DNA of 64,000 nt from IMG/VR virus record IMGVR_UViG_2690315653_000003, positions 12,181 through 76,180 of that record; one strand, written 5' to 3'. A model generated the notes under the pieces. The model worked only from the letters and a program-made list of their open reading frames with translations. It was not told where the DNA came from and did not search any database. A program made the position numbers and the translations under genes. Source of the stretch: a virus (Duplodnaviria; Caudoviricetes). The stretch's first letter is position 1; each line of letters opens with the position of its first letter. Of the stretch, positions 11,850-51,154 are shown piece by piece.

Positions 11850-12712
11850 CCCATCCATCCTATTATTATCCCTACGAATTTATCTCCCCCTCATCTATGT
11901 ATGCAGAAATTAAAGAGGAGATGAAAAGTTATTTTGCTACCGGGGTGGTGGATGATACCATGTTTCCTATATATACGGAGAGTGCTTTAAAGAAAATTGG
12001 GAGAGCAACCTACAAAATAGATGAAGTTATTGTTGAGCTGAGTAATCTTTCTGCATGCCTTCCAGCCGATTTCAGTTTCATCCGCGAAGTATGGTCCTGC
12101 CAGTCTTCTTATTTTACTATGCCCAACCCAGGAGCACTATATAGTAGTAATACCTATGTCATCTCTCCGGGCGGTGATTTTGACTCCTGTAATCCATGTT
12201 CATGTCCTGAGACTTGCGATAAAAAATTCCAGGTAGTAAGTAAAACGACCACACAGACCATTCTGACTTTTAATCACTCCTACCGGCTTAAGCCAGGAAA
12301 CAGAAATGTCTTAAACCTATGCAGCAAGGATTGTGATGCTATCAGCAAAGATGCTCCAGATATCTTTGATATCCGGGATGGAAAAATATTTACCGGATTT
12401 ACGGAAGGTACCCTGCACATCATCTTTTATAAAAAAGAATTTGACGATTCTGAGTTCCAACTCATACCAGATAACCACCGAATCATAGAATACATCAAGG
12501 CATTTTTAAAATACAAGATGTATGAACAGATCTTCAATGAGGTAGCTGATGAATCTTTTAACCAGGCAGAGCGAAAATATCAGCTATATAAACAAGAATA
12601 CTATGATGCCTATATCAATGCAGACGCGGAGGTAAAGAAACAAACCATTGGCCAGAAAATCAGCAGCATACATGCTGCCAGCCGTCGCATGAACAAATAT
12701 ATTATCAGGTGA
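11837..12712 (+). CDS. tail tubular protein
   Basis: 291 aa; position between IHF-like and stabilisation genes; 'LPADF', 'LIPD...YI' motifs. Confidence 0.7.
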   Translation: MAGLTHPSYYYPYEFISPSSMYAEIKEEMKSYFATGVVDDTMFPIYTESALKKIGRATYKIDEVIVELSNLSACLPADFSFIREVWSCQSSYFTMPNPGALYSSNTYVISPGGDFDSCNPCSCPETCDKKFQVVSKTTTQTILTFNHSYRLKPGNRNVLNLCSKDCDAISKDAPDIFDIRDGKIFTGFTEGTLHIIFYKKEFDDSEFQLIPDNHRIIEYIKAFLKYKMYEQIFNEVADESFNQAERKYQLYKQEYYDAYINADAEVKKQTIGQKISSIHAASRRMNKYIIR

Positions 12713-31700: not shown

Positions 31701-34700
31701 GAGAAACTACTTGAAAGGGGATCTGGTAAAACTGACCAGGAGTTAATAGATTATCTGAACTCAAAAGGTTCTGATTTGCTTACTGGTATTGGATTTCGTA
31801 TTCCTACCCAGGAACTTAACTCCGTTGAGCATATAAAAATTAAAGGTTTTTTACCCCAGGAGATGGGCGATACAATTATAGTCCCCTCCGAAATCGTACT
31901 CAAAGCCGGCAGTGACTTTGACATTGATAAGCTGAATACTTATTTAAAAAACTTTTACATCGGTAAAAACGGATTCCCTGAACCGATATCTTTTGTGCAT
32001 GCTGATACCCAGACTGACGAAGGACTTAAGGTTTTGTATAATCATATCTTTGGAACTACCGAAAACATCCTACGCATTGCTCATCGGCAGCTTGCCGAGC
32101 AGGCGGAAAGAGGACAACTAAAGGCGCAAAACAAAATAGGGTTTTCAGAGGAGCATTCCAGATTAATAGAGAGTGTATTTTCCAGCCTGGCAGAACAGTT
32201 AAAAGAAGCAGGAATTAATGAAAAGTCTTACCAGCGTGCAATTGAAAAATATATACCCTTTGATAAGTTTTCCAGCATGGTCTCAGGTAAAAATATTTAC
32301 CAGATTTATTCCATGTTTGATTCCGCTGCTCTGGAAAATGAATATATAAGGACACTTCAGCAGTTATTATCCCTGCCCGAAAATTTTGAAAGGCTTATAC
32401 AGCCTAACAGTGCCGATGAGTTGGTAGCTCTTCGGGGGGAACTCAACCAGGCGCTAGGTATAGGTGCTGAGGAAACAAAAGGAAATTTTTCATTACTGCT
32501 GGATCCATTTTATATGTCACAAACCAGGCATAATTTTCTGAGTGGAAAGGATGGAGTAGGTATTGCAGCACTTCAGCAAACCAATACTGCCTTAAGCCAA
32601 CTAGCCGGAATTGTCCTTGATCACAGAAATTTTAATAACAAACTTTCCAATGCAGAAAAATCAGTTGTCAAAAATATAACCGTTCAGTTGCCTCATAATA
32701 CCGTGAGTGTGGATGGTGAGGAATTTATCAGTATTTCGGCCATTAAGGATACTATTGGAAAATATATTTCAGATAAGATCAGCTCGTACATAAATGGTTA
32801 TGTAGACGTGGCAAAAGATCCCTTTATCATTGAACTTGGGGCCAGTCTCAATGTTGCCAGCACATACATGTTCCTGGAAAAAATCGGGGTGCCGACCAGG
32901 GATGTGATCTTTTTTATGAACCAACCCATCATTAAGGATTATTTGAGATTGCTTTCCATCAAAGGTTTTAATACTGTTTTTTCTGAAAAGACAATCAGGT
33001 ACATTAATCAGGCAAAAGGTTTGTATCCTACCGGAAAAGTTGCTGTCGGCGCAATTGACACCAGCAATTTAAAAACCTTTATTGAGAAAAAAAGTAGAGG
33101 GAAGAAGTTCTCAGATATTGAAAATGGTATTCAGCAGCAAATACTCGATGAATTTCTAAAATACTCGGTCTTTTCAGGTCACCTTTTTAAATTAACGCAA
33201 GGTAGTAATTACGACACCGATTATTTTAGTGACGCTTCCCTGGTCTTTAGAAAGCAGACTTTCACCAGACAGGCAAGAGAAGGGAATCTTTTTAATAGCA
33301 TTGATAAATTACTGGATAAGTCTTTTATTGGCACCATTGCCCAGTATCTGGGAAAAGTTAAATCAGCTTTAGGAGAAATATTTCTTTTTGACAGGCCATC
33401 TACCATGCAGGGTTTTGAGCAAATTCTATCCTATTATTTGCCTAAAGATGGAGCAGTGTCAGAAGATGATTTTCTCACTATCGCTTCAAAACTCCAGAGC
33501 AGTTTCCTGGACTTTATCACTCAACTGGCTTCAGAAAACAGTCTGAATACAAAAATTCAGGATCTGTTACTCGGACAGGATGCCGTGGCAGCAGAACTGG
33601 TGGCCTTTAAAAAAGCAATTCCAGCCGGGAGTGATCTTTCCGAAAACACAATACTTAAGTTACTGGAACCTGTTTACGATGATGCTTCCACCATTGAGCC
33701 ACAAAATGTTAAGCTGACTGAGAAAGCATATGATAGCTATACTTCCAATCTTTACACGGAAGCCATGCGTGAGCTCAGAGACAACGTGCATTCTGCAGGT
33801 CTGTATAAACGACTGATCTTGTTATCGCTGGTGCAATCAGGATCGAGAAGATCTCCAATATCATTTACAGATATTATTCCTGTAGAGGACTACGCGCCGA
33901 TAGTGACTCGCGCCCTCGAAAATTTAAGCAAAGGTAACTTTATCCGTGATTTTGTTTCCAGCTTTGCATTCCAGCGAGTTCATTATTGGGATGAGCGCGT
34001 TGTCCCCACTGTTGAACCAAAGGAAATATCTACCTACTACGGCTCATTTACCCCTCTTTATGAGGTGCCAACACGACTTTACAAGAATTTAAGCATAGTA
34101 GATGGATCTTACCAATTTATCCAGCTAAGTACTCATTTCCAGTCCAGAGAAAGTAATTACCCGGTTGTAAAGATCAGGCAGATAGCCATTAACCCGGTAA
34201 CGAAAGCACCATACACTCCTGTAGAACAAGCACAGATGAGGAAGAACGGTGATTATTCCTTTTTTTCTATTAAGCTTTTTCAGAAAGTAATGATGGAGGA
34301 TACAAATGGAAATGACGTTGCACTCTCATATGATGATGATCAGGTGAAGCGACCTGGCGCAAAATTTTACATTTACAAACAGATCAATGCCTGGGGAAAA
34401 CCAGGACTTGTGCTGGAATATTATGATCACCCTCGCGTCTCTGTACTGCCTTCCAACCAAAAAATAGATGAATTTTCTGATGCCCAGGTTATCGGTGCTT
34501 TTCAAAACAGGGATGAAAAGATGCTGCAGTTAAATGATTCTAATGTAGATACAACCATCCCATCAAAAGCAGGAAAGCAAACGCTCGATAAAGTTTACAA
34601 TTTCCTTGAAAAAATCGGGGTACAAATAAAGGATGTTAATCAGATCGTTGTAAATGGAAAACGGATAGATGCCAGTGCAGTAGCCGATATTTTGAATAAA

Positions 34701-37700
34701 ACCATTCAGGTTGTAAACGGTAAACATGATACAGCCCTCCCGGAGGAGGCTATGCACTTTGCCGTAGAGCTAGTTCAGCAGTCTAATCCGCAGTTTTTTA
34801 AAGGGCTGCTCAGAGATATAGGAAAGTTCAGGCTGTATAACGATATATTATCTCTCTATGGAAATGAGCCGTTATATCAAAAGGATGGAAAGCCAGATAT
34901 CTTAAAACTCAAAAAAGAAGCAATCGCCAGAGTCCTGGTAGAGGTAATCATTAATAAGTCAGAAGGCATCAATGAAAAACCTGAATTACTGGCCCAGGTG
35001 GGATCATGGTGGGAAAGGATAATTAGTTTCCTAAAGAATCTTTTCTCCAAAGGCCCCTTAAATTTATTTGAAACTGCTGCAGGCAATATTTTAAATGGAC
35101 AATTTAGTGATGAACCAATAACAGGTCAGAATGAAGTCTTTTTTCAATTGAATAAAGACACTCATCAGAGCCAGCTTTCTGACAAGCTTTTAAATCTTCA
35201 TTCCCAACTTTCTAAAGAAGTTTCAGCTACCAATGGTCAGGATAGTTACTATGTTATTGGGGGGAAAAGGGTAAGTGAGCGTGTAACCAATCTATCAAAA
35301 CTTTATTACGAACGTAAGTTTCGCAATAAACAAATCTCTGAAACAGAGCTTCAGAAGGCAATCAATGATCAGAAGAAGGAAAAGGGAACAGATGGACACG
35401 CTGATCTGGAGGATATTTTTCACCGCATGATTGGTGATGACGGGTTTTTAAGAAATGAGGAGCTTTTACAAACCATTCCTTCCCGTTTGTCTCCTACAGA
35501 CAACTCTTTTTATAGGACATTGGAAAACAACATGCGGGAGCGTCTTCGCAGCTTTAAGGCCGGTACCAGATTCTTTAGTGAGCTAATGATTTATGACGAG
35601 GAGAAAGATATGGCCGGTACCATCGACTTTCTTGCCATTGAGCCAGATAACGCTGACGGAACACCTGGAAAGATCCATATTCTCGACTGGAAGTTTGTAA
35701 ATTTAAAAGAGCAGGCCACAGATATTCCTTTCTACAAGAAAGAAGCCTGGAATATCCAGATATCTGAATATTTAAAAATGCTTTCCCGCCCTGTATATGG
35801 CGCAGTAAAGGATAATTTTGGTATGACCAGAGCTATACCCATAAAGGCTCTATATTCCTTTGAGGATAATGAACGCACCAAATTAAAGTTATTTGGTGTA
35901 GAAATCGGAAATGTTAATGTCAAAGCTATTACTGATGATACTTTACTTCCTGTTCCAACAAAGTACGAAAGTACTGGTAACAAGGATTTGGATAAGTTGA
36001 TATTTGCCCTCAATAGCCTTCATGAAAAGATTTTTGATACCAGGTCTGATCCCGGAGCAGAGTATCTGAAAAACCAGCGGCTTAATGACATCACAACTGC
36101 TATCCGCAGACTACAAATGAAGAAGGAGACGGAGACGCTTTTCAAATTTGCCAAAAATGATATTTACAACTTCAATGCTTTCTTCCGTAAATATTTTGAA
36201 TTGCTGGACTCCGGCAAACAGGAGCTGAATGCAACTGATGTTAATGAACTTTCCGGAAAGATCCTGGATGCTGAGGATGTACTCACCCTTTATAAAGACT
36301 TCAATGTTACATTCCGGAAGATATTCTCATACAAGGACGCTGAAAGCAAGCCAATTCTTCAGGAGTCTGAAATGATAAGTGATGACGCAGAGCTGGTATT
36401 AAGCAGGATTATAACTCTTGCCAATAACCTGCGTGTCAATAGCATCGCTCGTGGTCTTGAAGTGGAAGATGTCCTGGAGCCAGAAAAAGTGGTTACCTGG
36501 TATCAGAAATGGGTCAGGTCACTTTCTCAAGGTGCCACAAAAGCCACGGAGATCCTTTGGGAGATCGTGAAAAATATCAATACCCGTATTCAGATTGAGT
36601 TTTCAGAGGAAATTGAGAAGCTTATCTCGTTAGAAAAGAAAGTGAGCGAATGGCTTCGTACAAGCGGGCTTTCTTTTAAGGAATTACAGGATATGATTTT
36701 TCAGAAAGATGCAAAAGGCAGATGGAACGGAAAAGTAATATCTACAACAAGTCCAGAGTTTTATGCTGAAATGACCGATGCGCTTACTAAGAAGAATGCC
36801 TCATGGGTAATGGGCAATATTGATCTGGAAGCCTATAACAAATGGTATAAAGAGGAGATGGATCTTCGTAAGAAGAATTTTGAGACATCCAGGTTGCATG
36901 AGGACGAAAAAGAAGATGCTGCCCTTAAAATAGCCAGGCTACAGGACTTTAAAAAGCATTTTGATATCATGGATAATCCAGATACGGCTATAAGTCTTGC
37001 TAATTATAAGCTAAAAGCCTATCCTGACTTAAATATCTGGAAATCCAAAGAATTCGCTCGTTTACATGAACCCCACAATGAACCTGTTTTAGCGTTATAT
37101 AATTTCTGGATAGCTAAGCTGGAAGAGTCCTATAAATTAGGAATGTTAAAATCCTGGGAGAGAAAAACATTTTTTCCTAATGTAAGAAAGGATTTTTTGG
37201 ATAAGATTGTTTTTGGAGCCGAGTCCGGCGTGGTCAAAAGTGCAAATCTGAACTTTTTGAATTCAGTCCGAATCGATAATAACGATGAAGTTTTCGGTTA
37301 TACTGATATCAACGGAAATCCTCAAGACAAGCTCTCATCACTTTATCATTATGACCTGGGCGAAAAAATCCTTGATAAGGACGGGGAGTTATTCAGTGAT
37401 TATGCAAATAAAAGCACGGATATATTTAAGGTGATGGCCCTTTGGGAAAAGGAAATTATCAAGTATCGCCACAAATCTGAAGTAGTAGATACTGTTAGAT
37501 TGCTTCATTTTACGGAAAAAAACAGGCAGGCTATATCCAGGTCAAAGAGGACAGGAGGTATTGCTATCAAAGAGGACGGAGAGCCTGTTTTAATAGATAA
37601 CGTAGAAAATACTGAATACTTCAAAAACTACATGGATTATTACTTCTATGGTAAGCGTCTTTCCGAAGGGCAGGATGTAACTTTTCAGTTTAAATATAAC

Positions 37701-39215
37701 CGGCTGGCAAAAAAAGTAAATGAATTTTTTAAGTCGGACCTGATGCCTGTCTCCAGTGAAGAGGAAATTACCATTTCCGGGAAGAAAATGATCCGAGCAA
37801 CAAATCGTTTCTTTCAGATGAAAGTGCTGGGTCTCAACCTGGCTACTGCTTTAACTAACTATCTGGGAGGTAAAGCCAATGCCTATATGCTCGCTGGAAA
37901 GTATTTCACAAAATCCGATTATACAAAAGGAGCGTTACAGCTGGCCAGTGCGAAATTTCATACTGAAGAAGGGAAAATACATGCCGGCCTGCTGAACTAT
38001 TTTCTTCCCCTGACAGAAGATCGTACTGGTGAGCAGATTAAACAGCTTTCTGTTTCCAAAGCCGTCAAACTGCTCTCCAGTGATCATTTGTTTTATCTGA
38101 TGCGAACATCTGATAAAGGAGTCCAATATCCAGCAGCCCTGGCCATGTTTAGTAATACGATGGTTAACGATGGTAAGCTGGTAAATATTCGTCAGCACGT
38201 AAAAGACCTCAATAATTACGGGAGTATTTATAGCTTAAGTGGCCCTGATCAGCAGGCGCTCCGTGCAAAAATTGAAACAGAGATTGAGCAGTTAAAAAAT
38301 ACAAAATCTTTGCCTGTAGTTGCAAAAATCGAGAATGATAAAATTGTACTGGATGGCATTACCCGAAACTCCAAAACAGTAGCGGATCTACGCAATAATA
38401 TTCAGCAGTTTAGCAAGGATGCTTTGGGCAACATGAGCGAGGACGATATTTCCCAATACCGTATGACGCTTTTAGGGCAGTCATTTATGATGTTTAAAAA
38501 CTGGATACCCAGGATGGCCGATGTCAGATTCGGTGAATTCCGCTACCAGATTGGTACTGATAGCTATGAATGGGGTAGGGTAGCTATGCTTTTTAATGCA
38601 CTAAGGCATGGAATACTTACAGGTGCCAAAGCTTCTATAGCATCACTTGCTGGTAAAAACGAAGGTCTTATTGATATTGCCAGAAAAGTTTACCTGGAGA
38701 AAAAGCGTCAGGCGGAAGCTACCGGCAGACCATTCAAAATGACGGAGGCTGATTTTGTTGATATGTATGTTAAGGGTATCCGTACCCAGCTCAAAGAAGT
38801 AGGACTAATGATGTCTATGCTGGGAATGCTAATGTTTGCCAAATCAGAAGTTCCAGATGACGATGATGACAGGACGACAGGCGTTTATAAATGGCTTACC
38901 AGAACACTTGATAAAATGACAGATGAATTGGGATTTTTCTTAAATCCGCTTTCTTTTACGGCCATTGCCAATGGTAGTGTTTTCCCATCAGTGCAGCTTA
39001 TTAATGATATTGTCAGGTTTACCAGCGGAATGACAATGGAATCCTATTTCCTACTCATTGGAGATGAAAAGGGCGCTGAAAAGAACAAGGTTATGAAATA
39101 CCTGTTTAAAACATTTCCGGTATCAAAAGAGCTGATGACCTATGTTGCTATGTTTAATGAAGATCTGGCCAGGGAGTATGGTATTACTATAACTTCCCGT
39201 GCAAGAATAAGATAA
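22758..39215 (+). CDS. giant virion-packaged DNA-dependent RNA polymerase polyprotein
   Basis: 5485 aa; 'GFRIPTQ' followed by catalytic 'GSDFDIDK' (DFDIDK at 31914-31931); 'YVDVAKDP'; zincin-like and PD-(D/E)xK domains. Confidence 0.92.
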   Translation: MIDKNVLQGSSDLSLLQSNYVNGDPTTDYANSVLNKYKPSTKASTGLTPFSGGTTPATQVPTGSDGARYPYYSPFVPSNEDLYASYQSWYSKAGNGIMKGAGLAGTTFLNGTAGLIVGIGSAVSDGKMSSFYDNEFTRSLDDINKYMEDRLPNYYTTKEQNADWYSPSNLFTANFLFDKVIKNLGFSVGAIGAGLTYGAALRSLGLFSKVASAGGLARAAELSEQMASAVPQMQQGAAATNSIRVAAGEFLSGFNTLNTAQRAVVSGLSTIGEANFEALLQLNDYRRELISNYVTENGVRPTGKDLDQINQYAEKAGNTIFALNVPLLTATNYIQLPKILGSSYQAEKSIFSSGVRNASAVAFDKEAGKFTSTIAQKGFGKMLNRAKNVAGLFFAPSEAFEELSQTSFNFGVENYYNKARQGKDTDFFSDLLGEGYRQGITTKEGLESALIGGLSGGIFELRHQIKERGFTGYGGSQAATNKAAINLFNNKLFSGFLSDTRDAVDRGGIIQMQRMEAIRRGDFLEAKELQTDFTLNYLAPRIKYGRFDLVKDDISTYRQLASTPEGLRQLKDQGIIADDTTSEQLLSRISNMETHADNVNHLYQSLNIRYSGQKDKDGKRIYPDEVIDKMVYAAAKVSDYDMRVPALSSSLIDASINVQPILDEMAQSDHPSEATIRPAIEQIKNLNILADKKDDIRADLRDLVELTMRRKQFLKEYDSLKNKPEEYITKKYGPVVTQNGDTEIIIPQVDQDGKSYDYKVKTGSKYGTSTTYQRNGNAFVVNPELNIVETNPLGEIRTTLPDGQTKFLFPAEMSGYKLSDPLTEIEAQVLESKMNDAIDQTVKLPAFDHLEQEMKNKTLAEKLDIINFLDDKQLADELEKAFGIINSDFENTRKSIQKLTEDPVVSTQVDKGFAEADGLAGTTQTTDPAEDKEIIDQVNEDQGAKKHITTLFRSSTSENSAISGVGENDDFHRRANKLLNNIDDITDKENIRVAVVTFANQKQLGLEGLIPDKVPGSTTSSADINEGIIRLVFIRSTSAGDYFVDQGGNNMEKVGTKPDFNKLVYTTMPSTSLTWKNYELRYISTGKRASTPAQAGTYQDAYRIKRTSLLSRATGYEVFPFSVSKGFASYDKTGNSYAVTESLVPTRELSNKLLIIPTQQTEEVNGKKAGSIIHNDQTIYLPLGRPILQRGATLVPLNNRKLTGKEKQVIKKLIVKLADGASKGTVDKAILNYFQGLLYWKKPSDTKAATKGQIWYSKGYLYLGSSTNKTPFLPQLLSSSPQLEKFLDDVYVSANNFLLTQRFSQPFNEIVDIDSQDNPVQVQWKSYQHFLLSGSYITTVDDTSGLAGTARATDQIPFTTDIAPVAATSDKYAATFQGRYVTLQNFDIFPHTATQQAGTTTSATVTPLAQQSPPPGESITPVAETADFEPIIKAGDFVLDGVTLNLISFEGKKLASVAATFSAEGVQFTDYKHLRKKALTEDFKASVLQIATVQINQAVLAEIEKRTSAAEQLTVSPESNAPSPAVAPIAQTADLNATEATNTGPQAESNVSGKTAEEIFKNLRPNRSGNDIAGGQYRIISHLPSSRENIPAFKDYLSKVLPAVPLRVVDNLISTTDGGYAWGVFRDNAIYLYEGAEIGTGYHEAFEAVYGMFLSSRQQQEIIKEFKKRSGSFIDRVSSNQVSYNKATDHQAKEQIAEEFREFNLSGTLPERPAADGFFKRLLNFIKSVLLGKAASMREIFSRINEGYYSRMTPPYANRVSAEQYSRFIPGLNTRFIQQVMEGMTSMVFEELFSENRSLVEFDEYHLSVSDLYKKVYDRMQVYFDTSLPEGLLADIEDAKLDQKEAEKTIALYTDFYNKTWLPISNNWQKLLQINESFLKPFNLIFETDLNQEELEAAINNPGKNQRDYERDILKISARKNAASSIKLLFATLTQVEDDGYNSAKQDVLIAPAKKLSSIKLPQLVNYARTFNRMLYEVVGSISPSDMISKIKGLARKDKTYIRLYNRLKTGTGYDNLSLYDWKLLIKLYSVSAKQRPDFFIQIQDEGGRTYLAGANENRQTSQVISSWLNNLKANAGNDKLIYVDTNRYRVNPKKLAPFTEAVKQPSGKISFLNSLGIDFTSQAYDLLSDKDKRKFNDATQRLFNQLLKTADIATLSGRSLGITGALTKLAEVYVKANGESAESQHFNIDGEPVQNLLLHNYVSTILNDLNYYPTKSDLVNALPHLSDSFSTGSLLLENGGVLFDDDGNRRPDPINISIIEGMKPVGPRAGTSTEKLSLSGRRLQEFNQNLNGIYYVLLPADSRTEWSLNLDKFHYIPYSDLSNPGVLSNKVFRIFGGYLQAEMELVSKFKDRSHIKNIRKQGTDLRFFKGILGQDLHAKAIAAINTGYDHKTWISDNRTAIGQQIKEWFDKREDELFNYFRDYEVIKPENENLYTFSGLDSDFKDDNKIPEKLTEAEIRSIIRFRTLNYSIQNTEFHKIFFGDPALYSDPTKRIKSFLSGRETTYHSDPYFNTFANNRLNATSLSDDRIMLKLSDPGYWEFKDYMVTATVADIEIVGSLALDHSIPENLRAAYENANEADAQSWITLPAYRELLLKSGGRWTDAMERQYQYEMAYERLGRSKTNGFSYENRGDLRKHDEDLVKKGNPQSGIFHVIKPIGTGVKAGAAFADIFLDKTSAMPIYYRMSEGRGLGKLYGKMSAAGISYAIMESGRKVGAEFLNPVYQTNGDFNPEPFSGNVNVPFKYFGIQLETAGTKHKQTRGTQLTKLAIINLLASGIPQDISMDAAAWNKLSETEKIQLSPSYKLISANIAILKAMADKGYQQVLDQLGISETENGFHIADKKLVAAFISREAEARDLPDNFKSAIGIDAETGDFKISLEAISNYRAVKSIIYSIVDKKLLSPKMPGGPKVQVSSALFERNNRQAVYKPAGAKTANWERVTDFDKLTDQEKSSVRLTSSDLKFYTRDAPYIEVYMPHWFREKLLERGSGKTDQELIDYLNSKGSDLLTGIGFRIPTQELNSVEHIKIKGFLPQEMGDTIIVPSEIVLKAGSDFDIDKLNTYLKNFYIGKNGFPEPISFVHADTQTDEGLKVLYNHIFGTTENILRIAHRQLAEQAERGQLKAQNKIGFSEEHSRLIESVFSSLAEQLKEAGINEKSYQRAIEKYIPFDKFSSMVSGKNIYQIYSMFDSAALENEYIRTLQQLLSLPENFERLIQPNSADELVALRGELNQALGIGAEETKGNFSLLLDPFYMSQTRHNFLSGKDGVGIAALQQTNTALSQLAGIVLDHRNFNNKLSNAEKSVVKNITVQLPHNTVSVDGEEFISISAIKDTIGKYISDKISSYINGYVDVAKDPFIIELGASLNVASTYMFLEKIGVPTRDVIFFMNQPIIKDYLRLLSIKGFNTVFSEKTIRYINQAKGLYPTGKVAVGAIDTSNLKTFIEKKSRGKKFSDIENGIQQQILDEFLKYSVFSGHLFKLTQGSNYDTDYFSDASLVFRKQTFTRQAREGNLFNSIDKLLDKSFIGTIAQYLGKVKSALGEIFLFDRPSTMQGFEQILSYYLPKDGAVSEDDFLTIASKLQSSFLDFITQLASENSLNTKIQDLLLGQDAVAAELVAFKKAIPAGSDLSENTILKLLEPVYDDASTIEPQNVKLTEKAYDSYTSNLYTEAMRELRDNVHSAGLYKRLILLSLVQSGSRRSPISFTDIIPVEDYAPIVTRALENLSKGNFIRDFVSSFAFQRVHYWDERVVPTVEPKEISTYYGSFTPLYEVPTRLYKNLSIVDGSYQFIQLSTHFQSRESNYPVVKIRQIAINPVTKAPYTPVEQAQMRKNGDYSFFSIKLFQKVMMEDTNGNDVALSYDDDQVKRPGAKFYIYKQINAWGKPGLVLEYYDHPRVSVLPSNQKIDEFSDAQVIGAFQNRDEKMLQLNDSNVDTTIPSKAGKQTLDKVYNFLEKIGVQIKDVNQIVVNGKRIDASAVADILNKTIQVVNGKHDTALPEEAMHFAVELVQQSNPQFFKGLLRDIGKFRLYNDILSLYGNEPLYQKDGKPDILKLKKEAIARVLVEVIINKSEGINEKPELLAQVGSWWERIISFLKNLFSKGPLNLFETAAGNILNGQFSDEPITGQNEVFFQLNKDTHQSQLSDKLLNLHSQLSKEVSATNGQDSYYVIGGKRVSERVTNLSKLYYERKFRNKQISETELQKAINDQKKEKGTDGHADLEDIFHRMIGDDGFLRNEELLQTIPSRLSPTDNSFYRTLENNMRERLRSFKAGTRFFSELMIYDEEKDMAGTIDFLAIEPDNADGTPGKIHILDWKFVNLKEQATDIPFYKKEAWNIQISEYLKMLSRPVYGAVKDNFGMTRAIPIKALYSFEDNERTKLKLFGVEIGNVNVKAITDDTLLPVPTKYESTGNKDLDKLIFALNSLHEKIFDTRSDPGAEYLKNQRLNDITTAIRRLQMKKETETLFKFAKNDIYNFNAFFRKYFELLDSGKQELNATDVNELSGKILDAEDVLTLYKDFNVTFRKIFSYKDAESKPILQESEMISDDAELVLSRIITLANNLRVNSIARGLEVEDVLEPEKVVTWYQKWVRSLSQGATKATEILWEIVKNINTRIQIEFSEEIEKLISLEKKVSEWLRTSGLSFKELQDMIFQKDAKGRWNGKVISTTSPEFYAEMTDALTKKNASWVMGNIDLEAYNKWYKEEMDLRKKNFETSRLHEDEKEDAALKIARLQDFKKHFDIMDNPDTAISLANYKLKAYPDLNIWKSKEFARLHEPHNEPVLALYNFWIAKLEESYKLGMLKSWERKTFFPNVRKDFLDKIVFGAESGVVKSANLNFLNSVRIDNNDEVFGYTDINGNPQDKLSSLYHYDLGEKILDKDGELFSDYANKSTDIFKVMALWEKEIIKYRHKSEVVDTVRLLHFTEKNRQAISRSKRTGGIAIKEDGEPVLIDNVENTEYFKNYMDYYFYGKRLSEGQDVTFQFKYNRLAKKVNEFFKSDLMPVSSEEEITISGKKMIRATNRFFQMKVLGLNLATALTNYLGGKANAYMLAGKYFTKSDYTKGALQLASAKFHTEEGKIHAGLLNYFLPLTEDRTGEQIKQLSVSKAVKLLSSDHLFYLMRTSDKGVQYPAALAMFSNTMVNDGKLVNIRQHVKDLNNYGSIYSLSGPDQQALRAKIETEIEQLKNTKSLPVVAKIENDKIVLDGITRNSKTVADLRNNIQQFSKDALGNMSEDDISQYRMTLLGQSFMMFKNWIPRMADVRFGEFRYQIGTDSYEWGRVAMLFNALRHGILTGAKASIASLAGKNEGLIDIARKVYLEKKRQAEATGRPFKMTEADFVDMYVKGIRTQLKEVGLMMSMLGMLMFAKSEVPDDDDDRTTGVYKWLTRTLDKMTDELGFFLNPLSFTAIANGSVFPSVQLINDIVRFTSGMTMESYFLLIGDEKGAEKNKVMKYLFKTFPVSKELMTYVAMFNEDLAREYGITITSRARIR

Positions 39216-39226
39216 AAACTGTTACT

Positions 39227-40210
39227 ATGCCTACTATGAGGAATTGTCAGCCCTGCAATTATATTTCCGGTAATGAATGTACCCAGTATACCGGACCCAC
39301 TTCCCAGGATTGCGGACTGGTAAACGGAAACTGGTATATTATCGACGACCTTATAAGCGCATTAACCTGCGCCGGCTTCAGCACAACTACTACGTCGTCC
39401 ACTACCATAAGTGACCAGGAGGGAGGATGTATAACCTTGCTGGTGGAAGGTTTTAATCAGATCTATAGCTTTGGGGGTAACGGTTTTGCTACCTTAGTTT
39501 ATAAGTTATATGGTGACATGGACAAGACGCAGTTAATCTATGAGAAAAGTATAGAACATGGGAATGCAGATGCTTATACTCTTTTTAATGCTCAAAATAT
39601 TCCAGGCCCTATTTATCCAGTTATTTCAGCGTTCATGACTTCTCCTGATGGCAATCCATATTACAGCTATGGTAGTGGTCTTGACCTGATTATTGTTACC
39701 AATGATATGATAAGATATGCCAGAACAATACCAATGCCTGTTGAGGGTAATAATATTTTTCCGGCGCTACCGGCCCTTCCCAGGGGTAGAACTAAAATCT
39801 ACCTGAACCTAAATGCTTTTGATTCTAACAGCAATCCTGGACAAGGTATTATTGCTTTAGGTGGCAGTAAACTTATAAGTTCCTATTTTGAAGTAAACAC
39901 GATATTAAATAATGGCGGGGATGTTGGGACACCCAAAATGATTTGGCCGGATACTGTGTACAATTTAACAGATTACATGTATTGCGACTTTGATACTGTT
40001 AGATTTGGCTCTGCTGCCACATCGATGACTCTTAGCATAACGGGATCAAATAACGAGAGTGTGCCCGTCAAAGTTGAATTTACTGCCTCTGACGACCCTT
40101 CTTTGTCATTTACCGATACTGTCGCTGTCGGCCAGTCTTATGAGAAAGTATTAGACCTTACTATCCCGCAAGTTACCATAAATGATTTCCTGATAAGAAT
40201 ATTGAAATAA
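39227..40210 (+). CDS. putative virion surface/fibre protein with Thr/Ser tract
   Basis: 327 aa; Cys-rich N-module resembling those of 6663 and 7790, then STTTTSSTT, then a beta-rich domain. Confidence 0.5.
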   Translation: MPTMRNCQPCNYISGNECTQYTGPTSQDCGLVNGNWYIIDDLISALTCAGFSTTTTSSTTISDQEGGCITLLVEGFNQIYSFGGNGFATLVYKLYGDMDKTQLIYEKSIEHGNADAYTLFNAQNIPGPIYPVISAFMTSPDGNPYYSYGSGLDLIIVTNDMIRYARTIPMPVEGNNIFPALPALPRGRTKIYLNLNAFDSNSNPGQGIIALGGSKLISSYFEVNTILNNGGDVGTPKMIWPDTVYNLTDYMYCDFDTVRFGSAATSMTLSITGSNNESVPVKVEFTASDDPSLSFTDTVAVGQSYEKVLDLTIPQVTINDFLIRILK

Positions 40211-40217: not shown

Positions 40218-41036
40218 ATGAAGTTCATATGTGCCCAACCTGATAAACCTTTATTTATCTGGCAATTGAAAACGCTGTTGGTTTCCCTTATCAAGCTAGG
40301 AGTGAATAAGGAAGATATTTATTTCCTCACTCTCCTGGAGGAGGGAGTACCTGCCAGCCTGGAGATAAAATCGTTAGAGAAATACGCCAGCATATTTTAT
40401 TACCCGGAGCGATCAGAAGGGCGGATATATCCAGCTAGTTCAAAACCGTATTTATTTGCCAGGTTCTGGGAGCAATTCCCGGAAAATAAGGAGCGCCACT
40501 TTCTATTCATTGAATCTGATATGCTGGTATATCAGATACCAAACCTTCCTGAAGATGAAAACTGGTATTGGAGTGAGGCCGGCAAGTATTTGGATACCGG
40601 CAAATTTGAGTATTTGCTCGGATGTCCTGATAGCATTTCAAAAGCATTTGGATTTCATTGTTTCGGGAAAGGAGCTGATGCGGACTTTTGGTACCAGGTA
40701 GAAAAAGAATCCATAGATCTTTATATTAAGATGATAGCCCTAAACCTGCCGGGGAATAAATGGATTTGTGAGATGCGAACCTGGATGTGGAATGCGGGAA
40801 GGAAGTTTAACAATGTCATTTCCCCGGAACTACTTTTTAATGACGGTACAGGACCCAGAAAGCATGGAGCAACACTTTACCATCAGCTATCAAGTAAAGT
40901 ATTCCGTAAAAGAGATTACACGTATACTGAGCCCTTTGATATTGAAATTAGAGTTGACCCTAAGTTTTGCGTTTACGATTACCTGCAGGCAATAAGAACT
41001 GCTGGTTCTATATTTAAAATTAATTCTGAAAGTTAA
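40218..41036 (+). CDS. glycosyltransferase-like protein (GT-A fold, GT95/GT96-like), paralogue 1
   Basis: 'AQPD...WQ', 'YPASSKP', 'FIESDM' (DxD-like), 'WICEM'. Confidence 0.6.
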   Translation: MKFICAQPDKPLFIWQLKTLLVSLIKLGVNKEDIYFLTLLEEGVPASLEIKSLEKYASIFYYPERSEGRIYPASSKPYLFARFWEQFPENKERHFLFIESDMLVYQIPNLPEDENWYWSEAGKYLDTGKFEYLLGCPDSISKAFGFHCFGKGADADFWYQVEKESIDLYIKMIALNLPGNKWICEMRTWMWNAGRKFNNVISPELLFNDGTGPRKHGATLYHQLSSKVFRKRDYTYTEPFDIEIRVDPKFCVYDYLQAIRTAGSIFKINSES

Positions 41037-41076
41037 TAATAAGCTCTTAGGCCGTCCTTTTAACGGTAGTAATTGA

Positions 41077-41084
41077 TAATTTTG
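41077..41084 (+). promoter_or_regulatory. candidate -7 element TAATTTTG
   Basis: TAnnTTTG match in the gap between the two glycosyltransferase-like genes. Confidence 0.35.
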
Positions 41085-41161
41085 ATTGACCCTATCCGCG
41101 CCCAACATCTTGTTTAAGAAAGCTCCTAAAGGAAGGTTTGCTCTATTTGTTCCCTTTACCT

Positions 41162-42193
41162 ATGAAAGACCTTGTGTTTATGTCGGCTCAACCTGATGAT
41201 ATGGTGTTTAGCTGGCAAATTGAATTGTTCATTGAAAATATCCGGGATCTTGGTTATCAAAATGAAATCCAGGTGCTATTGTTTACGCCGGCAGATAGGA
41301 TGTATAACAGAAATCCGAGTCGGTTTAAAGCTCTGGAGAAAAAATATAGCGGAAACAATGTTAAATTCTATTGGTATCCCGATGTTGCTAACTTATTAAC
41401 CTACGGCATTATACCAATAAACTATATCCCGCTCTTAAGGCCACATATACTTAAGCAGCATTTTAAAAGATTTCCGGATTTGAAAGAGAAAGCCATTTTC
41501 TATCATGATTCTGACATCATTTTTACCCAATACCTGGATTTTAGCCCATACTTAAGTGACGATATCTGCTATCTGTCAAATACCGGCAATTATATGAACG
41601 TAGGGTATTTTGAAAGTAAAACAAAACAGGTTCTTACTCATAAAGCTCAGGAATATGAACAGATAGACATATTAGACCAGTGTTGCCGGTTTGCAGGAAT
41701 TACCAGGGAGATCTGCGAAAAAAATGATGAGGTGTGTGGTGGTGCCCAGTATCTGCTAAAAAATATTGATAGTGACTTCTGGGAGGATGTGGAAAGGGGT
41801 GCCTACAGAATAAGAAATTACCTGGCCTACGAACTGGCTGGTATAAACCTTCGCTTCTTTAAAGATGAAAACGATGGTTTCCAAAGCTGGTGCGCTGACA
41901 TGTGGGCATTACTCTGGAATCTATGGAATCGAGCATATAAAACCAGCGTGCCGGAAGACTTTGGCTTTGCATGGGCAACGGATAAAATTGAGAAATGGAA
42001 CCAGGTGTATTTTTATCATGATGCCGGCGTTGGTGCCAAAAATGAATTTTACTTATTTAACAAACGTCGCCCAAACTATATTTCAAACCAGCTTTTACCT
42101 TACCATGATGACTTAAGCCACGTATCAGCGGGGTTTTGCTCTTATAAGTATGTCCAACACATCAGGGCGGTAAAAGAAAAGAATAAATATTAA
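41162..42193 (+). CDS. glycosyltransferase-like protein (GT-A fold, GT95/GT96-like), paralogue 2
   Basis: Start moved to ATG 41162 (MKDLVFMSAQPD) to match paralogue 1; 'WQ', 'YIPLLRP', 'FYHDSDIIF' (DxD), 'GGAQY', 'WCADMW', 'HDAG'. Confidence 0.7.
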   Translation: MKDLVFMSAQPDDMVFSWQIELFIENIRDLGYQNEIQVLLFTPADRMYNRNPSRFKALEKKYSGNNVKFYWYPDVANLLTYGIIPINYIPLLRPHILKQHFKRFPDLKEKAIFYHDSDIIFTQYLDFSPYLSDDICYLSNTGNYMNVGYFESKTKQVLTHKAQEYEQIDILDQCCRFAGITREICEKNDEVCGGAQYLLKNIDSDFWEDVERGAYRIRNYLAYELAGINLRFFKDENDGFQSWCADMWALLWNLWNRAYKTSVPEDFGFAWATDKIEKWNQVYFYHDAGVGAKNEFYLFNKRRPNYISNQLLPYHDDLSHVSAGFCSYKYVQHIRAVKEKNKY

Positions 42194-42197: not shown

Positions 42198-42482
42198 ATG
42201 TCTCCCAAAGCTTTTATTAAATATAGTTCAGCCGATATGCTTACAAGCGGTGTATTGGTAATTAATGATGCTATACCCACCGGACTCGGATGGATAGAAG
42301 TGCCTTACACCAACTGTTGTAGTCAGGTTGGATTTCCGGCTATGCCAGCATCGTCTTTAAAAAAGAGAGGATATATCAAATATTCTAAATCTGGGCAGGT
42401 TGTTGCCGGTTCCACAATTATCAGAAATAAAAAACCAAAGAATGGCTACTGGCAAGAAGTTCCCCTTAAAAGATGCTGCTAA
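42198..42482 (+). CDS. small protein made of two tandem ~38-aa repeats ending in CC
   Basis: KAFIKYS...G..I...P.G.GWIEVP...CC and RGYIKYS...G..I...P..GYWQEVP...CC. Confidence 0.65.
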   Translation: MSPKAFIKYSSADMLTSGVLVINDAIPTGLGWIEVPYTNCCSQVGFPAMPASSLKKRGYIKYSKSGQVVAGSTIIRNKKPKNGYWQEVPLKRCC

Positions 42483-42483
42483 T

Positions 42484-42744
42484 ATGATCGATAAACTTCC
42501 TGTTATCCAGCGGTTCCTGCTATTCTTATCGAAAAACGTGGTGGCTTTAATGTTGGTATTACTGGCCACTTCAGTGACAGCAAACGTTTATTTAATCAAA
42601 GAGATCATCAGGGTAGGAGCAAATAGTGATGCTTTTAAAAATGCTACAATCGACTATGAAAGAAGGCGAGGTGAAAAACTGGAAGAAATCTTGCATCAGG
42701 AAGTAAAGCGGGAAACACTAATAAAACAAAATAGCCATGAGTAA
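42484..42744 (+). CDS. membrane protein, holin-like candidate
   Basis: ATG 42484 directly after the previous stop; one hydrophobic helix (VVALMLVLLATSVTANVYL) plus a charged C-terminus. Confidence 0.5.
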   Translation: MIDKLPVIQRFLLFLSKNVVALMLVLLATSVTANVYLIKEIIRVGANSDAFKNATIDYERRRGEKLEEILHQEVKRETLIKQNSHE

Positions 42745-42967
42745 AATCAGAATCATTCTGTCATTAACAATTGTCTGCCTGCTCATTATTTTCTCAGGAC
42801 AAACTCCCGCCCCAGGAAATAAACCTTTTTATCTCTCCTCTGATCTGCCAAAGGACTCCGTGATAAGGATCCTGCGTGAAGAAAATATGCGAACGCTTGG
42901 ATTTATAGAGGATAAATCAAGAAAATATGATTCAATACATCCTCCGGTGGATACAATCAAACGGTAA
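42737..42967 (+). CDS. small membrane-anchored protein
   Basis: N-terminal hydrophobic stretch IILSLTIVCLLIIF; overlaps its neighbours. Confidence 0.5.
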   Translation: MSKIRIILSLTIVCLLIIFSGQTPAPGNKPFYLSSDLPKDSVIRILREENMRTLGFIEDKSRKYDSIHPPVDTIKR

Positions 42968-43613
42968 TAAAGTTAAATACCTACTGGTACTGATTGTTAT
43001 TCTTATTCTGTGCCATTTTACCTGTAGAAAGCTAATTGGTGTCCTTTCTCCATCAGATACGGCCACAAGCACCCTGGAACCTGTTCGCAATATTACTGAT
43101 AACAACGGAAAAATACTCGCCGTGATCAGGTCTCAGGAATTAAAGCTGCTCGAAAATAAACTACTTATTGATTCTCTTGCTGGTGCTTTAAGGATTAAAC
43201 CCACAGCAGTAAAATCCATTGAAAGGTACGTAGTAAGAACCGATACTGTAATACGCACAGATGTAAAATACGTCAGAACAGCCGACTCAGTAATTCTCTC
43301 AAAGGATGATAGCTATTTGCATCTTTTGGCGGTGGGCAAGGATTCAGGGATCTCTTATTTCAGACTGAAACATACTGATACAATCTGTCGTGTTGAGGTT
43401 ATTAAAGCACCTCTACTGAGGCGTGCTTATACCGATATTTACCTCCGTAGCGCAAGTCCTTATAATACTATTGTATCAGGAAATTCGATAAGGGTAATTT
43501 CCCCCCAGCCCTTTCTAACAATAGGTCCTTATATTGGATATGATCCATTTGTAAATAAGATGTCATTTGGGCTGTCAGTTCAATACCCAGTTATAAAAAT
43601 ATACAAGAAATAA
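42927..43613 (+). CDS. spanin-like/lysis accessory membrane protein
   Basis: N-terminal TM; 'TDTVI..D' repeats; C-terminal beta hairpin 'IGPYIGYD...FGLSVQY' typical of Bacteroidota phage lysis-region proteins. Confidence 0.5.
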   Translation: MIQYILRWIQSNGNKVKYLLVLIVILILCHFTCRKLIGVLSPSDTATSTLEPVRNITDNNGKILAVIRSQELKLLENKLLIDSLAGALRIKPTAVKSIERYVVRTDTVIRTDVKYVRTADSVILSKDDSYLHLLAVGKDSGISYFRLKHTDTICRVEVIKAPLLRRAYTDIYLRSASPYNTIVSGNSIRVISPQPFLTIGPYIGYDPFVNKMSFGLSVQYPVIKIYKK

Positions 43614-43616: not shown

Positions 43617-44297
43617 TCATGACAGATATTTTCCTGGTCTCATTGAAAAGTTGATCTCCTTTTCCAAATCGGCTATAATCCTGTATGCTTCTGGATCATA
43701 CTGTTTTACTTCAGATAAATCATGATCGTTCATAAAAATACATATCCTACAGCTGAACCTGCGAAGATGCCTGTAGATAGGATGAAGGGGTATATTCCTT
43801 TTTTCCAGGTAATCAAGTACTTCCATTTCATTCCAGTGATGAATCGGAAGCCAGTCCCAAACAGTTCTTTTGCTATTGGTTAAAGCTTTATTTCTTTTCA
43901 GAGGATTTAATTTGCCTCTTGACCTGCTTTCCTGAGCTCTCATTCCCATACAATTGATTATTGTAGTGGACTTTATATTCCTGCGAATCCATGTCTGTAT
44001 AGGGCCTCTTTTTAAGTCTGAGGTGCATTGCCTGGTTGTCGCTGATGGGAATTTTCGACGCTTTCGGATCATAGATAAAAAGGTTTTATTTTCATTACGA
44101 CAAACATCCAGCTGCAAACCCATTAATGCCACAATTTTCTTGCACCACTCTACCGCATCTTTATGCTCCCAGCCAGTATCGGCCATAATAATTCTCTTTT
44201 TTACTTGAGGGTAGTGCTCACAAAGATAGGCCAGCATTGCAGAGGAGTCTTTTCCTCCTGAGAAATTGATAACTAATTCAATATTTTGATGTTTCAT
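43617..44297 (-). CDS. PAPS-reductase-family (PP-loop) protein
   Basis: 'FSGGKDS', 'DTGWE', 'R.CT..LK..P', 'G.RA.ES..R', 'PI..W', 'R.SC..C'. Confidence 0.9.
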   Translation of the reverse strand: MKHQNIELVINFSGGKDSSAMLAYLCEHYPQVKKRIIMADTGWEHKDAVEWCKKIVALMGLQLDVCRNENKTFLSMIRKRRKFPSATTRQCTSDLKRGPIQTWIRRNIKSTTIINCMGMRAQESRSRGKLNPLKRNKALTNSKRTVWDWLPIHHWNEMEVLDYLEKRNIPLHPIYRHLRRFSCRICIFMNDHDLSEVKQYDPEAYRIIADLEKEINFSMRPGKYLS

Positions 44298-50407: not shown

Positions 50408-51154
50408 TTAATATTCTATGTCATACTTATCAAGTGGAATAAGGAATTCGTAACTAAAAGGGACGTTACGAATTATCTTACCTTTTTTTACATTGGACAA
50501 CCAGTTCGTGATATAAAATATCATGTGTGCAGCGATTCCAGCTGCGGTAGGTGTTGTTTGAGTGTAGGTACATGAAGGCGTATCCGATTCATCAGGTTTT
50601 TCCAGACAATTATTGTAATATTTCTCCATTAGATCTGGCCTATCACCTGGTACGTTGTAGATCCACATTTGTTCTGCAAGCAATCTTCCGTCTTGAAAGA
50701 AGAACTCGCTGCGTTCGTGCTCAGGCGTTCTGTTCACATATGCAGCCCACTTTTCGAATGCGAGTCTTCTTACCTCTATTTTATCCGGGCCACAAAGCAC
50801 AATTTTTGATGTTTCACTGGTACGGGTATACTCTCCATGTGTCTCTATTTCGCAATCCGGGCTAAAGGAACTGATTGTATTTTTTATGGCCTCTACCTTT
50901 TTTTGCCCTACATTAGTGTCAAACATAACCTGGCCACCATTATGGTCCTCGAAAATATCCTTATCGTATACATGAAGACGTACTCCTGTTCTGGAGAGTA
51001 GTAATGACAACCAGGACCCAATCCCCCCCTGACCTATTATGACGATATCCCTTTTGTAGATAGCGTCAAACCAAAAGGCACCTTTAGACCTTCCATATAT
51101 GGCAGGGGTGATCATTTTTTCACTTTCTGTTAATACATTATTTTCATTTGTCAT
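50408..51154 (-). CDS. E1/ThiF-family adenylating enzyme
   Basis: 'IIGQGGIGSW' (GxGGxG), 'YDKD.FE.HN', 'K..A', 'GPD....R', 'DGRL', single Cys in 'TPSCTY'. Confidence 0.9.
   Translation of the reverse strand: MTNENNVLTESEKMITPAIYGRSKGAFWFDAIYKRDIVIIGQGGIGSWLSLLLSRTGVRLHVYDKDIFEDHNGGQVMFDTNVGQKKVEAIKNTISSFSPDCEIETHGEYTRTSETSKIVLCGPDKIEVRRLAFEKWAAYVNRTPEHERSEFFFQDGRLLAEQMWIYNVPGDRPDLMEKYYNNCLEKPDESDTPSCTYTQTTPTAAGIAAHMIFYITNWLSNVKKGKIIRNVPFSYEFLIPLDKYDIEY

Follow-up and report, generated by a model that had tools for sequence, protein, structure and literature searches.

A phage glycosyltransferase family linked to poly-threonine virion proteins: a predicted system for virion O-glycosylation

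Introduction

Why would a phage encode two glycosyltransferase-like proteins side by side at the end of its virion operon? The question is raised by a 64,000-nucleotide stretch of phage DNA (IMG/VR record IMGVR_UViG_2690315653_000003, positions 12,181 to 76,180; the whole of this stretch is called the window hereafter), in which two open reading frames (ORFs) on the + strand, ORF A (40218-41036, 272 amino acids) and ORF B (41162-42193, 343 amino acids), lie in tandem. The window corresponds to C8:3704251-3768250 within an 8.07 Mb bacterial genome (contig of 4.83 Mb), indicating that the phage is integrated. A first-pass annotation had read the pair as relatives of plant protein O-glycosyltransferases that glycosylate virion proteins.

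Here we followed up this proposal by sequence, structure and gene-neighbourhood comparisons. The two proteins are paralogues with conserved motifs, ORF B has the fold of a GT-A glycosyltransferase (GT), and the GT family is recurrently linked to virion proteins with poly-threonine (poly-Thr) tracts. Judging from these comparisons, we consider it probable that ORF B belongs to a virion protein O-glycosylation system of a new type, and we hold the same mechanism for ORF A with lower confidence.

Results

Two paralogues with a conserved motif series

The five motifs that the first-pass annotation had named as shared by the two proteins are all present and aligned in the translations and in the BLASTP alignment: AQPD..WQ (CAQPDKPLFIWQ in ORF A, SAQPDDMVFSWQ in ORF B), Y(P/I)xxx(K/R)P (YPASSKP and YIPLLRP), (E/D)SD (ESD and DSD), Wxx(E/D)M (WICEM and WCADM) and a late His (LYH and FYHDAG). 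ORF A and ORF B align end-to-end with 75 of 334 residues identical (22%; 50.4 bits; E 9e-12, a single-comparison value). ORF B had been listed from a TTG codon (41138-42193); its relatives start at the ATG at 41162 in the consensus of 65 sequences. Across 88 diverse family members, no variation was seen at Y88, D118, Y144, F269, H286 and K301 of ORF B, and conservation at D116, R93, Q196 and D246 reaches at least 90%. E99-S100-D101, F144-G-F-H147 and H222 are invariant in 16 of 16 members of the ORF A clade, and its ESD and FGFH correspond to DSD and GGAQ of the rest of the family. Judged from these alignments, motif conservation in both ORFs is well beyond chance.

Both proteins match phrog_4417, which is annotated as 'unknown function': ORF A at 6.1e-29, mainly over residues 1-129, and ORF B at 1.9e-47 over positions 3-292 of 293. 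They are the sole members of this family in the 8.07 Mb genome. Neither translation has a visible signal peptide or membrane segment.

Predicted GT-A fold of ORF B

The AlphaFold2 model of ORF B, built from 65 sequences, had a predicted local distance difference test (pLDDT) score of 96.1 and a predicted template modelling (pTM) score of 0.92. A Foldseek search of the PDB, which the first-pass annotation had suggested as a check for the GT-A fold, returned GT6 (GTA/GTB), WbbM, UGGT (GT24) and the GT8 enzymes glycogenin and XXYLT1 at E ~1e-6, with template modelling (TM) scores of 0.38-0.56 and identities of 8-13%. Within the best 500 matches at least 326 PDB chains had E <= 0.001, and all 50 among the matches listed were GT-A glycosyltransferases. 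Searched against BFVD, the model matched an uncultured phage protein (E 1.6e-31), Orf49 of Lactobacillus phage LP65 (E 2.9e-16) and giant-virus GT8-like enzymes. As modelled, ORF B is a GT-A fold glycosyltransferase with a single Rossmann-like alpha/beta/alpha domain; the more divergent ORF A is put in this class by its paralogy to ORF B only.

A D-x-D motif and a C-terminal His make up the metal-binding set of GT8 enzymes. ORF B has D116-S-D118 together with H286, and in ORF A the D-x-D is replaced by E99-S-D101, a conservative variant. The likeness to GT8 lies at the fold level (TM 0.39-0.56), as neither Glyco_transf_8 (CAZy GT8) nor GT6 gave a Pfam match for ORF A or ORF B. When ORF A, ORF B and the ORF B profile were compared by sequence with PDB chains, only chance-level matches were obtained.

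The first-pass annotation had likened the motif series to plant enzymes of families GT96 and GT95, which we take to be the CAZy numbers of peptidyl-Ser galactosyltransferase and Hyp arabinosyltransferase. The ORF B sequence is present identically in the Atlas, and a structure search there returned a Streptophyta cluster named 'Peptidyl serine alpha-galactosyltransferase' with a TM score of 0.70 (by query) over 293 aligned residues; in this one row, which gives a TM score but no alignment or E-value, PF23452 HPAT is found in 100% of the cluster members. The Atlas feature clusters nearest to ORF A contain HPAT in 16%, 10% and 58% of members, and DUF7164 in 92%. The proposed plant likeness is thus partly supported: it gained one independent structural trace, whereas membership in the HPAT family is unsupported, since the PF23452 hidden Markov model (HMM) matched neither ORF A nor ORF B nor any of 98 relatives. 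A PF23452 search of the phage's own bacterial genome (E <= 10) and of 401 Bacteroidota genomes also returned nothing; its controls were silent too, so that this search is uninformative on absence.

A large family in phages of Bacteroidota and Bacillota

A word-indexed search with ORF B found 1170 related proteins at E <= 1e-3, and an exhaustive profile search gave 893 representatives at 50% identity, 497 of them with E <= 1e-30. The GT family is carried by at least 547 IMG/VR viral contigs. By tblastn (E <= 1e-5), ORF B matched 77 deposited phage genomes, comprising phages of Lactobacillus (23), Enterococcus (21), Staphylococcus (11), Lactococcus (8), Clostridium (3) and others. The carriers include dairy, gut and environmental phages with hosts in the Bacteroidota and Bacillota, and cultured examples are iLp84/PLE3, phiFL1A, VPE25, the Lactococcus phages 1706 and bIL285, phiCTP1 and MA9V-3.

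Some longer relatives are fusion proteins. Among ten scanned against Pfam, five carry extra domains, namely Methyltransf_24, GT2 plus a methyltransferase, GT6 and two weak GT2 matches, and the other five carry none. The fused relatives with Methyltransf_24, GT2 plus a class I methyltransferase, or GT6 are P0020, P0026, P0171, P0187 and P0191. A second GT or methyltransferase domain fits the building of a glycan, and the fusions suggest, as far as domain content can tell, that methylated or multi-sugar glycans are made in some lineages.

Poly-Thr tracts of virion proteins in cultured phages

Of the 10 cultured GT-bearing lineages examined, 9 have Thr runs in capsid or tail-tube proteins or in proteins encoded next to the GT, and most of these runs are at the C-terminus or close to it. 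The GT gene of Lactobacillus phage iLp84 lies between the major capsid gene and the head-tail connector gene; both the capsid protein and the major tail protein end in seven threonines (T7), and the product of a small gene between the capsid gene and the GT (gp8) is almost all Thr. The major tail protein of Enterococcus phage VPE25 has a Thr run at its end, and a long internal Thr tract is encoded just upstream of the GT in Chryseobacterium phage MA9V-3. Clostridium phage phiCTP1 has Thr runs at the ends of gp11 and gp18, the latter encoded immediately before the GT and ahead of the chaperone and tape-measure genes, and gp4 has runs close to its end. The GT of Lactobacillus phage Bacchae (Herelleviridae) is flanked by three small ORFs with Thr-rich tails.

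Five of these lineages (phiFL1A, PT94, 1706, bIL285 and 521B) were fetched as a test after the idea had been formed, and Thr runs were found in four of the five. The major head and major tail proteins of phiFL1A both end in Thr runs, the ORF that immediately precedes the GT in Staphylococcus phage PT94 has a T14 run, T9-10 closes both orf10 and the major tail protein of Lactococcus phage 1706, and the major tail protein of bIL285 ends in T9. The residues that follow the Thr run are kept within lineages, being HHD or RHD in lactococcal phages and SHG, SHV, SHA or SK in prophages of the casei group; they may be a capping or recognition motif.

These gene positions bear on whether the enzymes glycosylate phage DNA, producing hypermodified bases that escape restriction. 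Phage glycosyltransferases are classically DNA-modifying, according to the available text of a review (PMC12619734), and two Herelleviridae phages, Bacchae and 521B, have the gene near those for DNA polymerase and recombinase. Small temperate siphophages, however, carry it wedged between two structural genes, the first of which encodes the capsid or tail-tube protein. The integrated phage of the window has no hydroxymethylase of the thymidylate synthase type: the only PF00303 match in the bacterial genome is at C8:4354481, ~586 kb from the window, and Pfam detected no thymidylate-synthase-family gene among the 20 ORFs scanned in the replication block. A DNA substrate would also leave the link to Thr-run proteins unexplained, and we find it hardly credible.

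Concordant presence of GT and Thr tail among capsid relatives

A search of IMG/VR with the iLp84 capsid protein yielded 75 loci, from which three with a truncated capsid gene and two with <2 kb of downstream sequence were dropped for the contrast between GT-bearing and GT-lacking loci. Among close capsid relatives (>=94% identity), a Thr tail occurs together with an adjacent GT in 37 of 37 loci that have either, and 17 of 17 loci without the tail have no GT. The tail-tube protein, encoded ~2.5 kb away, follows the same pattern, with tail and GT in 32 loci, neither in 15, and 2 plus 2 discordant. Neither tail nor GT is present in any of the 16 distant capsid relatives (51-62% identity), and 0 of these 16 loci contain an ORF with a run of six threonines (Thr6). 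Thr6 ORFs amount to 75 of 3919 in the 37 GT-bearing loci, with at least one in every locus, versus 3 of 3201, spread over three loci, in the 38 GT-lacking loci. A second set, of loci with relatives of the VPE25 tail protein, has the tail in 4 of 4 GT-bearing loci. Three distant GT-lacking loci of this set have no T5+ run, and neither of the two tail-tube C-termini that were read has one.

Thr-run genes on both sides of the GT in crAss-like phages

The related crAss-like loci examined were the best 80 of the at least 547 IMG/VR loci, in which ORFs of at least 35 amino acids were counted in all six frames; results on 80 related loci refer to this set. In the window, ORF B is directly followed by an ORF of 94 amino acids (42198-42482, + strand) that comprises two ~46-amino-acid beta-rich modules, each ending in CC. 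An iterated HMM of the module found it in 78 of the 80 related loci, and in the window the 94-amino-acid ORF is its only match. The module gene begins nearly always a few tens of bases past the GT, and two to four such genes often stand in tandem. Most of the short forms (55-91 amino acids) run straight into T7-xAP tracts, which are repeated one to four times, and in longer forms other domains replace the Thr tract or come after it. A second small family ends just upstream of the GT in many loci and combines a helical N-terminal module with the same Thr tracts and, optionally, C-terminal domains. Across loci L004-L083, the first family is recognised by its beta-rich ~46-amino-acid module ending in ECC and the second by a helical module of ~35 amino acids (IGWS..NLLWQISKQL).

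Thr-rich runs are present in 96 of 149 module ORFs versus 103 of 6715 other ORFs, and the second family, upstream of the GT, accounts for most of these 103. In 65 of the 80 loci, a module gene has a Thr run. On the GT strand, Thr6+ ORFs reach a density of 0.92 per kb over the kilobase that precedes the GT and of 0.95 per kb over the kilobase that follows it, versus 0 to 0.12 per kb farther than 1 kb away, and 68 of the 80 loci have a Thr6 ORF within 1.5 kb of the GT.

The long forms place lectin-like, leucine-rich repeat (LRR), BspA-LRR, ConA-like or Fib_succ_major domains behind the Thr linker. When ten of them were scanned against Pfam, Fib_succ_major was found in three, LRR types in two, Laminin_G_3 in one, an LCIB-type carbonic-anhydrase domain in one and nothing in three. 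By their domain order, the proteins flanking the GT look like an exchangeable set of fibre proteins in which a Thr stalk joins a short anchor to a variable binding head, and the layout of the module proteins suggests that they may be head fibres. The ORF at L008:13995-14990 (also in L029 and L005) joins part of the N-terminal module to an LCIB-type beta-carbonic-anhydrase-like domain (PF18599, 1.6e-17), an unusual cargo for a phage late operon.

The module HMM had no match in the loci of Firmicutes phages or of MA9V-3, so the common denominator across lineages is the Thr run and not the module. S-glycosylation of the CC pair of the module, as in glycocins, was also considered and set aside, since Firmicutes phages keep the Thr runs without the module.

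The setting of the GT at the end of the late operon is likewise conserved in related loci. In the window, a single open reading frame of 5485 amino acids (22758-39215, + strand) lies just upstream of the GT genes and their neighbours; its C-terminal 400-1600 residues are kept in ~21 related viral contigs at 25-38% identity. The C-terminus of this giant protein is encoded 4-9 kb upstream of the GT in ~21 of the 80 loci, and a RecA-like gene follows downstream on the opposite strand, which together indicate that the position is conserved.

Candidate acceptors in the window

Two real genes stood out when every window ORF of at least 60 amino acids was scanned for Ser/Thr. The first is the ORF at 4150-5268 (+ strand), with 14 Ser/Thr among its last 20 residues; the Thr/Ser tail itself makes up the last 18 residues (~5212-5265). 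A poly-Ser/Thr tail is present in 117 of 120 listed members of this protein family, the window copy included, and the tail sequences differ. The AlphaFold2 model of the ORF (pLDDT 78.7) matched chain a of 7qof, the phicrAss001 capsid, as the top Foldseek match (E 6.3e-10, TM 0.57/0.62, 333 residues), and weakly matched FliD D2-D3 domains. The crAss001 auxiliary capsid protein gp36 is described as having residues 1-333 with a PH domain and a FliD-like domain and as forming the outer capsid layer with nine copies per asymmetric unit (PMC10172136, available text). From length and fold, we infer that chain a is gp36. The ORF at 4150-5268 has no PDB sequence match and is identified by fold alone; the capsid protein of the window has no PDB sequence match either. 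On this model, an abundant outer capsid protein, the putative gp36 homologue, would carry a Thr/Ser tail in the window phage.

The second gene, encoding 327 amino acids (39227-40210, + strand), is directly upstream of ORF A and contains an internal STTTTSSTT tract at about residues 52-62. It had no Pfam, PHROG or PDB sequence match. The tail of the ORF at 4150-5268 is the likeliest acceptor in the window, and the tract of the ORF at 39227-40210 comes next.

ORF A and the tandem pair

ORF A-type homologues number 16 and comprise nearest relatives only; none was found in the viral-contig search. Seven of the 16 lie on contigs equal in size (110469, 517797, 88207, 117396, 51501, 105971 and 128859) to the contigs of top ORF B matches, and five of these seven sizes recur among the auxiliary capsid matches. 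The 517797 contig is a Chitinophaga polysaccharea record. These matching contigs suggest that only the nearest relatives have kept the pair in tandem. A tree of 72 sequences places the ORF A clade on a long branch outside all others and ORF B in a well-supported clade of eight among the crAss-like types; the four proteins from Firmicutes phages cluster with one another. A second family copy within 10 kb was found in 0 of the 80 related loci, so that most relatives make do with one enzyme.

Five Chitinophaga genomes contain solitary genes of a more distant ORF A type (38-46% identity), which adjoin a homologue of the window ORF at 9152-10255 and stand (L168-L172, 8001-8798) among large genes resembling tail-fibre and baseplate genes. 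No Ser/Thr tract was found within 8 kb of them in any of the five genomes, and ORF A may therefore have another acceptor or role. ORF A and ORF B could accordingly serve different acceptors, ORF B acting on poly-Thr tails and ORF A on other targets, for instance tail-fibre proteins or Ser-rich tracts, unless ORF A is a non-catalytic helper of ORF B. The long separate branch of ORF A with its clade-invariant ESD and FGFH, its restriction to nearest relatives, the solitary genes beside tail-fibre-like genes in the five Chitinophaga genomes, and the finding that none of the 80 related contigs needs a second copy all speak for such a division. On the other hand, adjacent co-oriented paralogues are equally expected of a two-step pathway, and the fused relatives combine the GT domain with other GTs. 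We regard separate acceptors as possible, though on the whole doubtful. The first-pass suggestion that the pair initiates and extends a glycan is possible too and found no support in this analysis.

Position of the pair and other genes of the window

As the first-pass annotation had stated, ORF A and ORF B lie on the late strand among structural genes: they share the strand of the head, tail and virion-structural genes, are downstream of these and precede the replication block, which follows after a strand switch. The + strand late operon includes the gene of the major head protein (825-2375; phrog_11589), and tail-fibre and other virion structural proteins are also encoded in it. At its end, between the GT genes with their neighbours and the strand switch, three small overlapping ORFs with hydrophobic N-terminal segments (42400-43613, + strand) gave only a weak DUF6549 match in Pfam; from these segments they may be a lysis cassette. 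The replication block encodes a PAPS-reductase-like protein, a PD-(D/E)XK nuclease, ThiF, DnaB and others, and at its end lies an ORF of 636 amino acids of the tyrosine-integrase family (62087-64000, - strand).

This arrangement also bears on the idea that the enzymes modify host surface glycans, that is, that they cause lysogenic conversion of lipopolysaccharide (LPS), capsule or wall polysaccharide. In favour of this, the phage is integrated and has an integrase, and the nearest solved folds include enzymes of LPS or O-antigen synthesis such as WbbM and those of the GT8 type. Against this, the genes belong to the late virion operon and are near neither the integrase nor an immunity region, no flippase or membrane partner lies next to them, and the family is common in virulent phages too (VPE25-like, Herelleviridae). 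As the link to Thr-run proteins would again be left unexplained, we judge a host-surface target very improbable.

The combination of a crAss001-type auxiliary capsid protein, the 5485-amino-acid virion ORF and the integrase marks the window phage as a temperate crAss-like phage, and its closest protein relatives bear Chitinophaga names. The PAPS-reductase-like protein (43617-44297, - strand; PF01507, 2.4e-22; phrog_424) and the ThiF-family E1-like protein (50408-51154, - strand; 4e-15) of the replication block could belong to a nucleic-acid or protein modification pathway.

Discussion

The poly-Thr tracts beside the GT in many lineages, together with the tail of the auxiliary capsid protein in the window, strongly favour virion proteins as the target, as the first-pass annotation had proposed. 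In the mechanism that we put forward, ORF B and probably ORF A would be cytoplasmic, metal-dependent GT-A glycosyltransferases made late in infection. Before the particle assembles or while it does, they would attach sugar from a host nucleotide-sugar to hydroxyl groups in the Thr/Ser runs of virion proteins, and the particle would end up with a mucin-like sugar coat. In the window, the C-terminal Thr/Ser tail of the ORF at 4150-5268 would be the likeliest acceptor, followed by the S/T tract encoded at 39227-40210. Relatives would use poly-Thr tails, namely those of capsid, tail-tube and small fibre-like proteins whose genes lie beside the GT. Catalysis, the acceptor, the sugar and its stereochemistry, as well as the contribution of ORF A, are all what we infer from the observations above.

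Several observations weigh against this mechanism, which is predicted from genes and protein models. Regarding the enzymes, Pfam gave no match for ORF A or ORF B, with none to PF23452 HPAT at E <= 1, and PF23452 likewise matched 0 of 88 ORF B relatives at E <= 0.01 and 0 of 10 further relatives, Firmicutes phage proteins included, at E <= 1. Regarding the acceptors, 12 of the 80 crAss-like loci lack a Thr6 ORF at up to 1.5 kb from the GT, the window's own 94-amino-acid module protein has no Thr run, the Chitinophaga genes of the ORF A type stand without the nearby tracts that the mechanism would call for, and Lactobacillus phage 521B has no T5 run, only PTTV repeats in an upstream Ig-domain protein. 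The GT of Bacchae and of 521B is in the replication region, in Bacchae near polymerase and RecA genes. In the iLp84 lineage, two complete or near-complete proviruses of the Lacticaseibacillus type (L128 and L132; G401 and G402) encode a poly-Thr major tail protein and have a GT nowhere, in a search whose positive control was 3/3; they may reflect recent loss or recombination. Conversely, the tail-tube protein has no Thr tail in two GT-bearing loci, one of them L087. On a capsid-gene tree from which the tail was left out, the GT state changes three times, giving 2-3 independent pairs (sign test p 0.5-1), and the capsid tail and the GT of the iLp84 type are adjacent and could move together. Because the loci are close kin with only 2-3 independent contrasts, the Fisher p of the capsid contrast is inflated and not usable as a probability. 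For the same reason, the weight of the argument lies in the recurrence of the association across unrelated lineages and gene positions, not in the contrast counts.

The most serious neutral alternative is the hitch-hiking of linker-rich cassettes, in which the Thr runs are flexible linkers or spacers, the GT is near them because both travel in a mobile cassette, and its substrate is unrelated. Tail and GT are adjacent in several lineages and inheritable as one block, the best-sampled lineage shows only 2-3 independent gain or loss events, and the two proviruses keep the tail without the GT. But the association recurs in lineages that place the GT differently, be it behind the capsid gene or the tail-tube gene, at the end of the operon or within the replication region, and tails are also found far from the GT, ~2.5 kb away in the iLp84 tail-tube protein and 36 kb away in the auxiliary capsid protein of the window. 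We therefore consider hitch-hiking improbable.

Glycosylation of virion proteins could extend to a larger picture, which to us is about evenly balanced between right and wrong. It would be a widespread, undescribed system that pairs a soluble GT related to the plant extensin GTs with poly-Thr tails, which are borne by capsid, auxiliary capsid and tail-tube proteins and by proteins resembling head fibres, and that thereby coats virions with sugar. It would operate in crAss-like phages of Bacteroidota and in many phages that infect lactic acid bacteria, enterococci, staphylococci or clostridia. In crAss-like phages the GT would be the hub of an interchangeable fibre cassette made of an anchor module, a glycosylated Thr stalk and a lectin or LRR head, and in the window phage the tandem second enzyme would extend or diversify the glycan. 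If this is true, sugar-coated virions would be common, given the 893 representatives and at least 547 viral contigs. Such a coat would bear on the adhesion of phages to mucus and polysaccharide matrices, on particle stability and on immune recognition in phage therapy, as well as on the mass and appearance of structural proteins in proteomics and cryo-electron microscopy. Plant protein O-glycosyltransferases would gain relatives in bacterial viruses, and glyco-engineering a simple pair of enzyme and tag. As cultured phages carry the gene, the idea is directly testable.

Among known enzymes, the plant peptidyl-Ser galactosyltransferase and HPAT proteins (PF23452) share with the phage family a GT-A type domain and, as predicted for the phage enzymes, action on hydroxyl-rich extended tracts, which in plants are those of extensins. 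Unlike them, the phage proteins are short and soluble, without a membrane anchor or extra domains, and their acceptor would be Thr runs instead of the Ser or Hyp of Ser-Hyp4 repeats. The retaining GT-A families GT8, GT6 and GT24 and WbbM provide the best solved-structure matches of ORF B, at TM scores of only 0.38-0.56.

The virion proteins can be compared with those of crAss001. Residues 1-38 or 1-58 of its head fibres gp21 and gp29 are reported to anchor in capsid hexon pockets (PMC10172136, available text), and the GT-adjacent proteins share the layout of these fibres, with a short N-terminal module, a linker and a variable binding domain. For gp36, in contrast to the candidate acceptor in the window, the available text of the same source (PMC10172136) mentions no C-terminal Thr tail or glycosylation. 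Our literature search, outside of which most subscription journals lie, found no paper on this phage GT family, on HPAT-like phage enzymes or on poly-Thr tails as glycosylation sites.

To our knowledge, mycobacteriophages are the only phages in which experiments have shown phage enzymes to glycosylate virions, as reportedly described by Freeman and colleagues in 2023. In the mycobacteriophages Che8, Corndog and Myrna, phage GTs are reported to glycosylate the C-termini of capsid and tail-tube subunits, and the glycans to shield the particles from antibodies (PMC12619734, PMC11256854 and PMC12363180, available text). No Mycobacterium phage is among the 77 records matched by ORF B, so that at this sensitivity the enzymes are not detectably related to the mycobacteriophage ones; no direct pairwise comparison with Che8 gp110 or Corndog gp38 was included. 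The system described here also differs in its hosts, which are Bacteroidota and Bacillota, and in being predicted from genes. The Che8 capsid protein gp6 and tail-tube protein gp11 end without a Thr run, whereas the present family goes with long poly-Thr tracts. What the two have in common is a phage-encoded GT together with capsid or tail subunits that carry a C-terminal acceptor region, here a candidate one: as in mycobacteriophages, the candidate acceptors are C-terminal tails, in this case of capsid, tail-tube and auxiliary capsid proteins.

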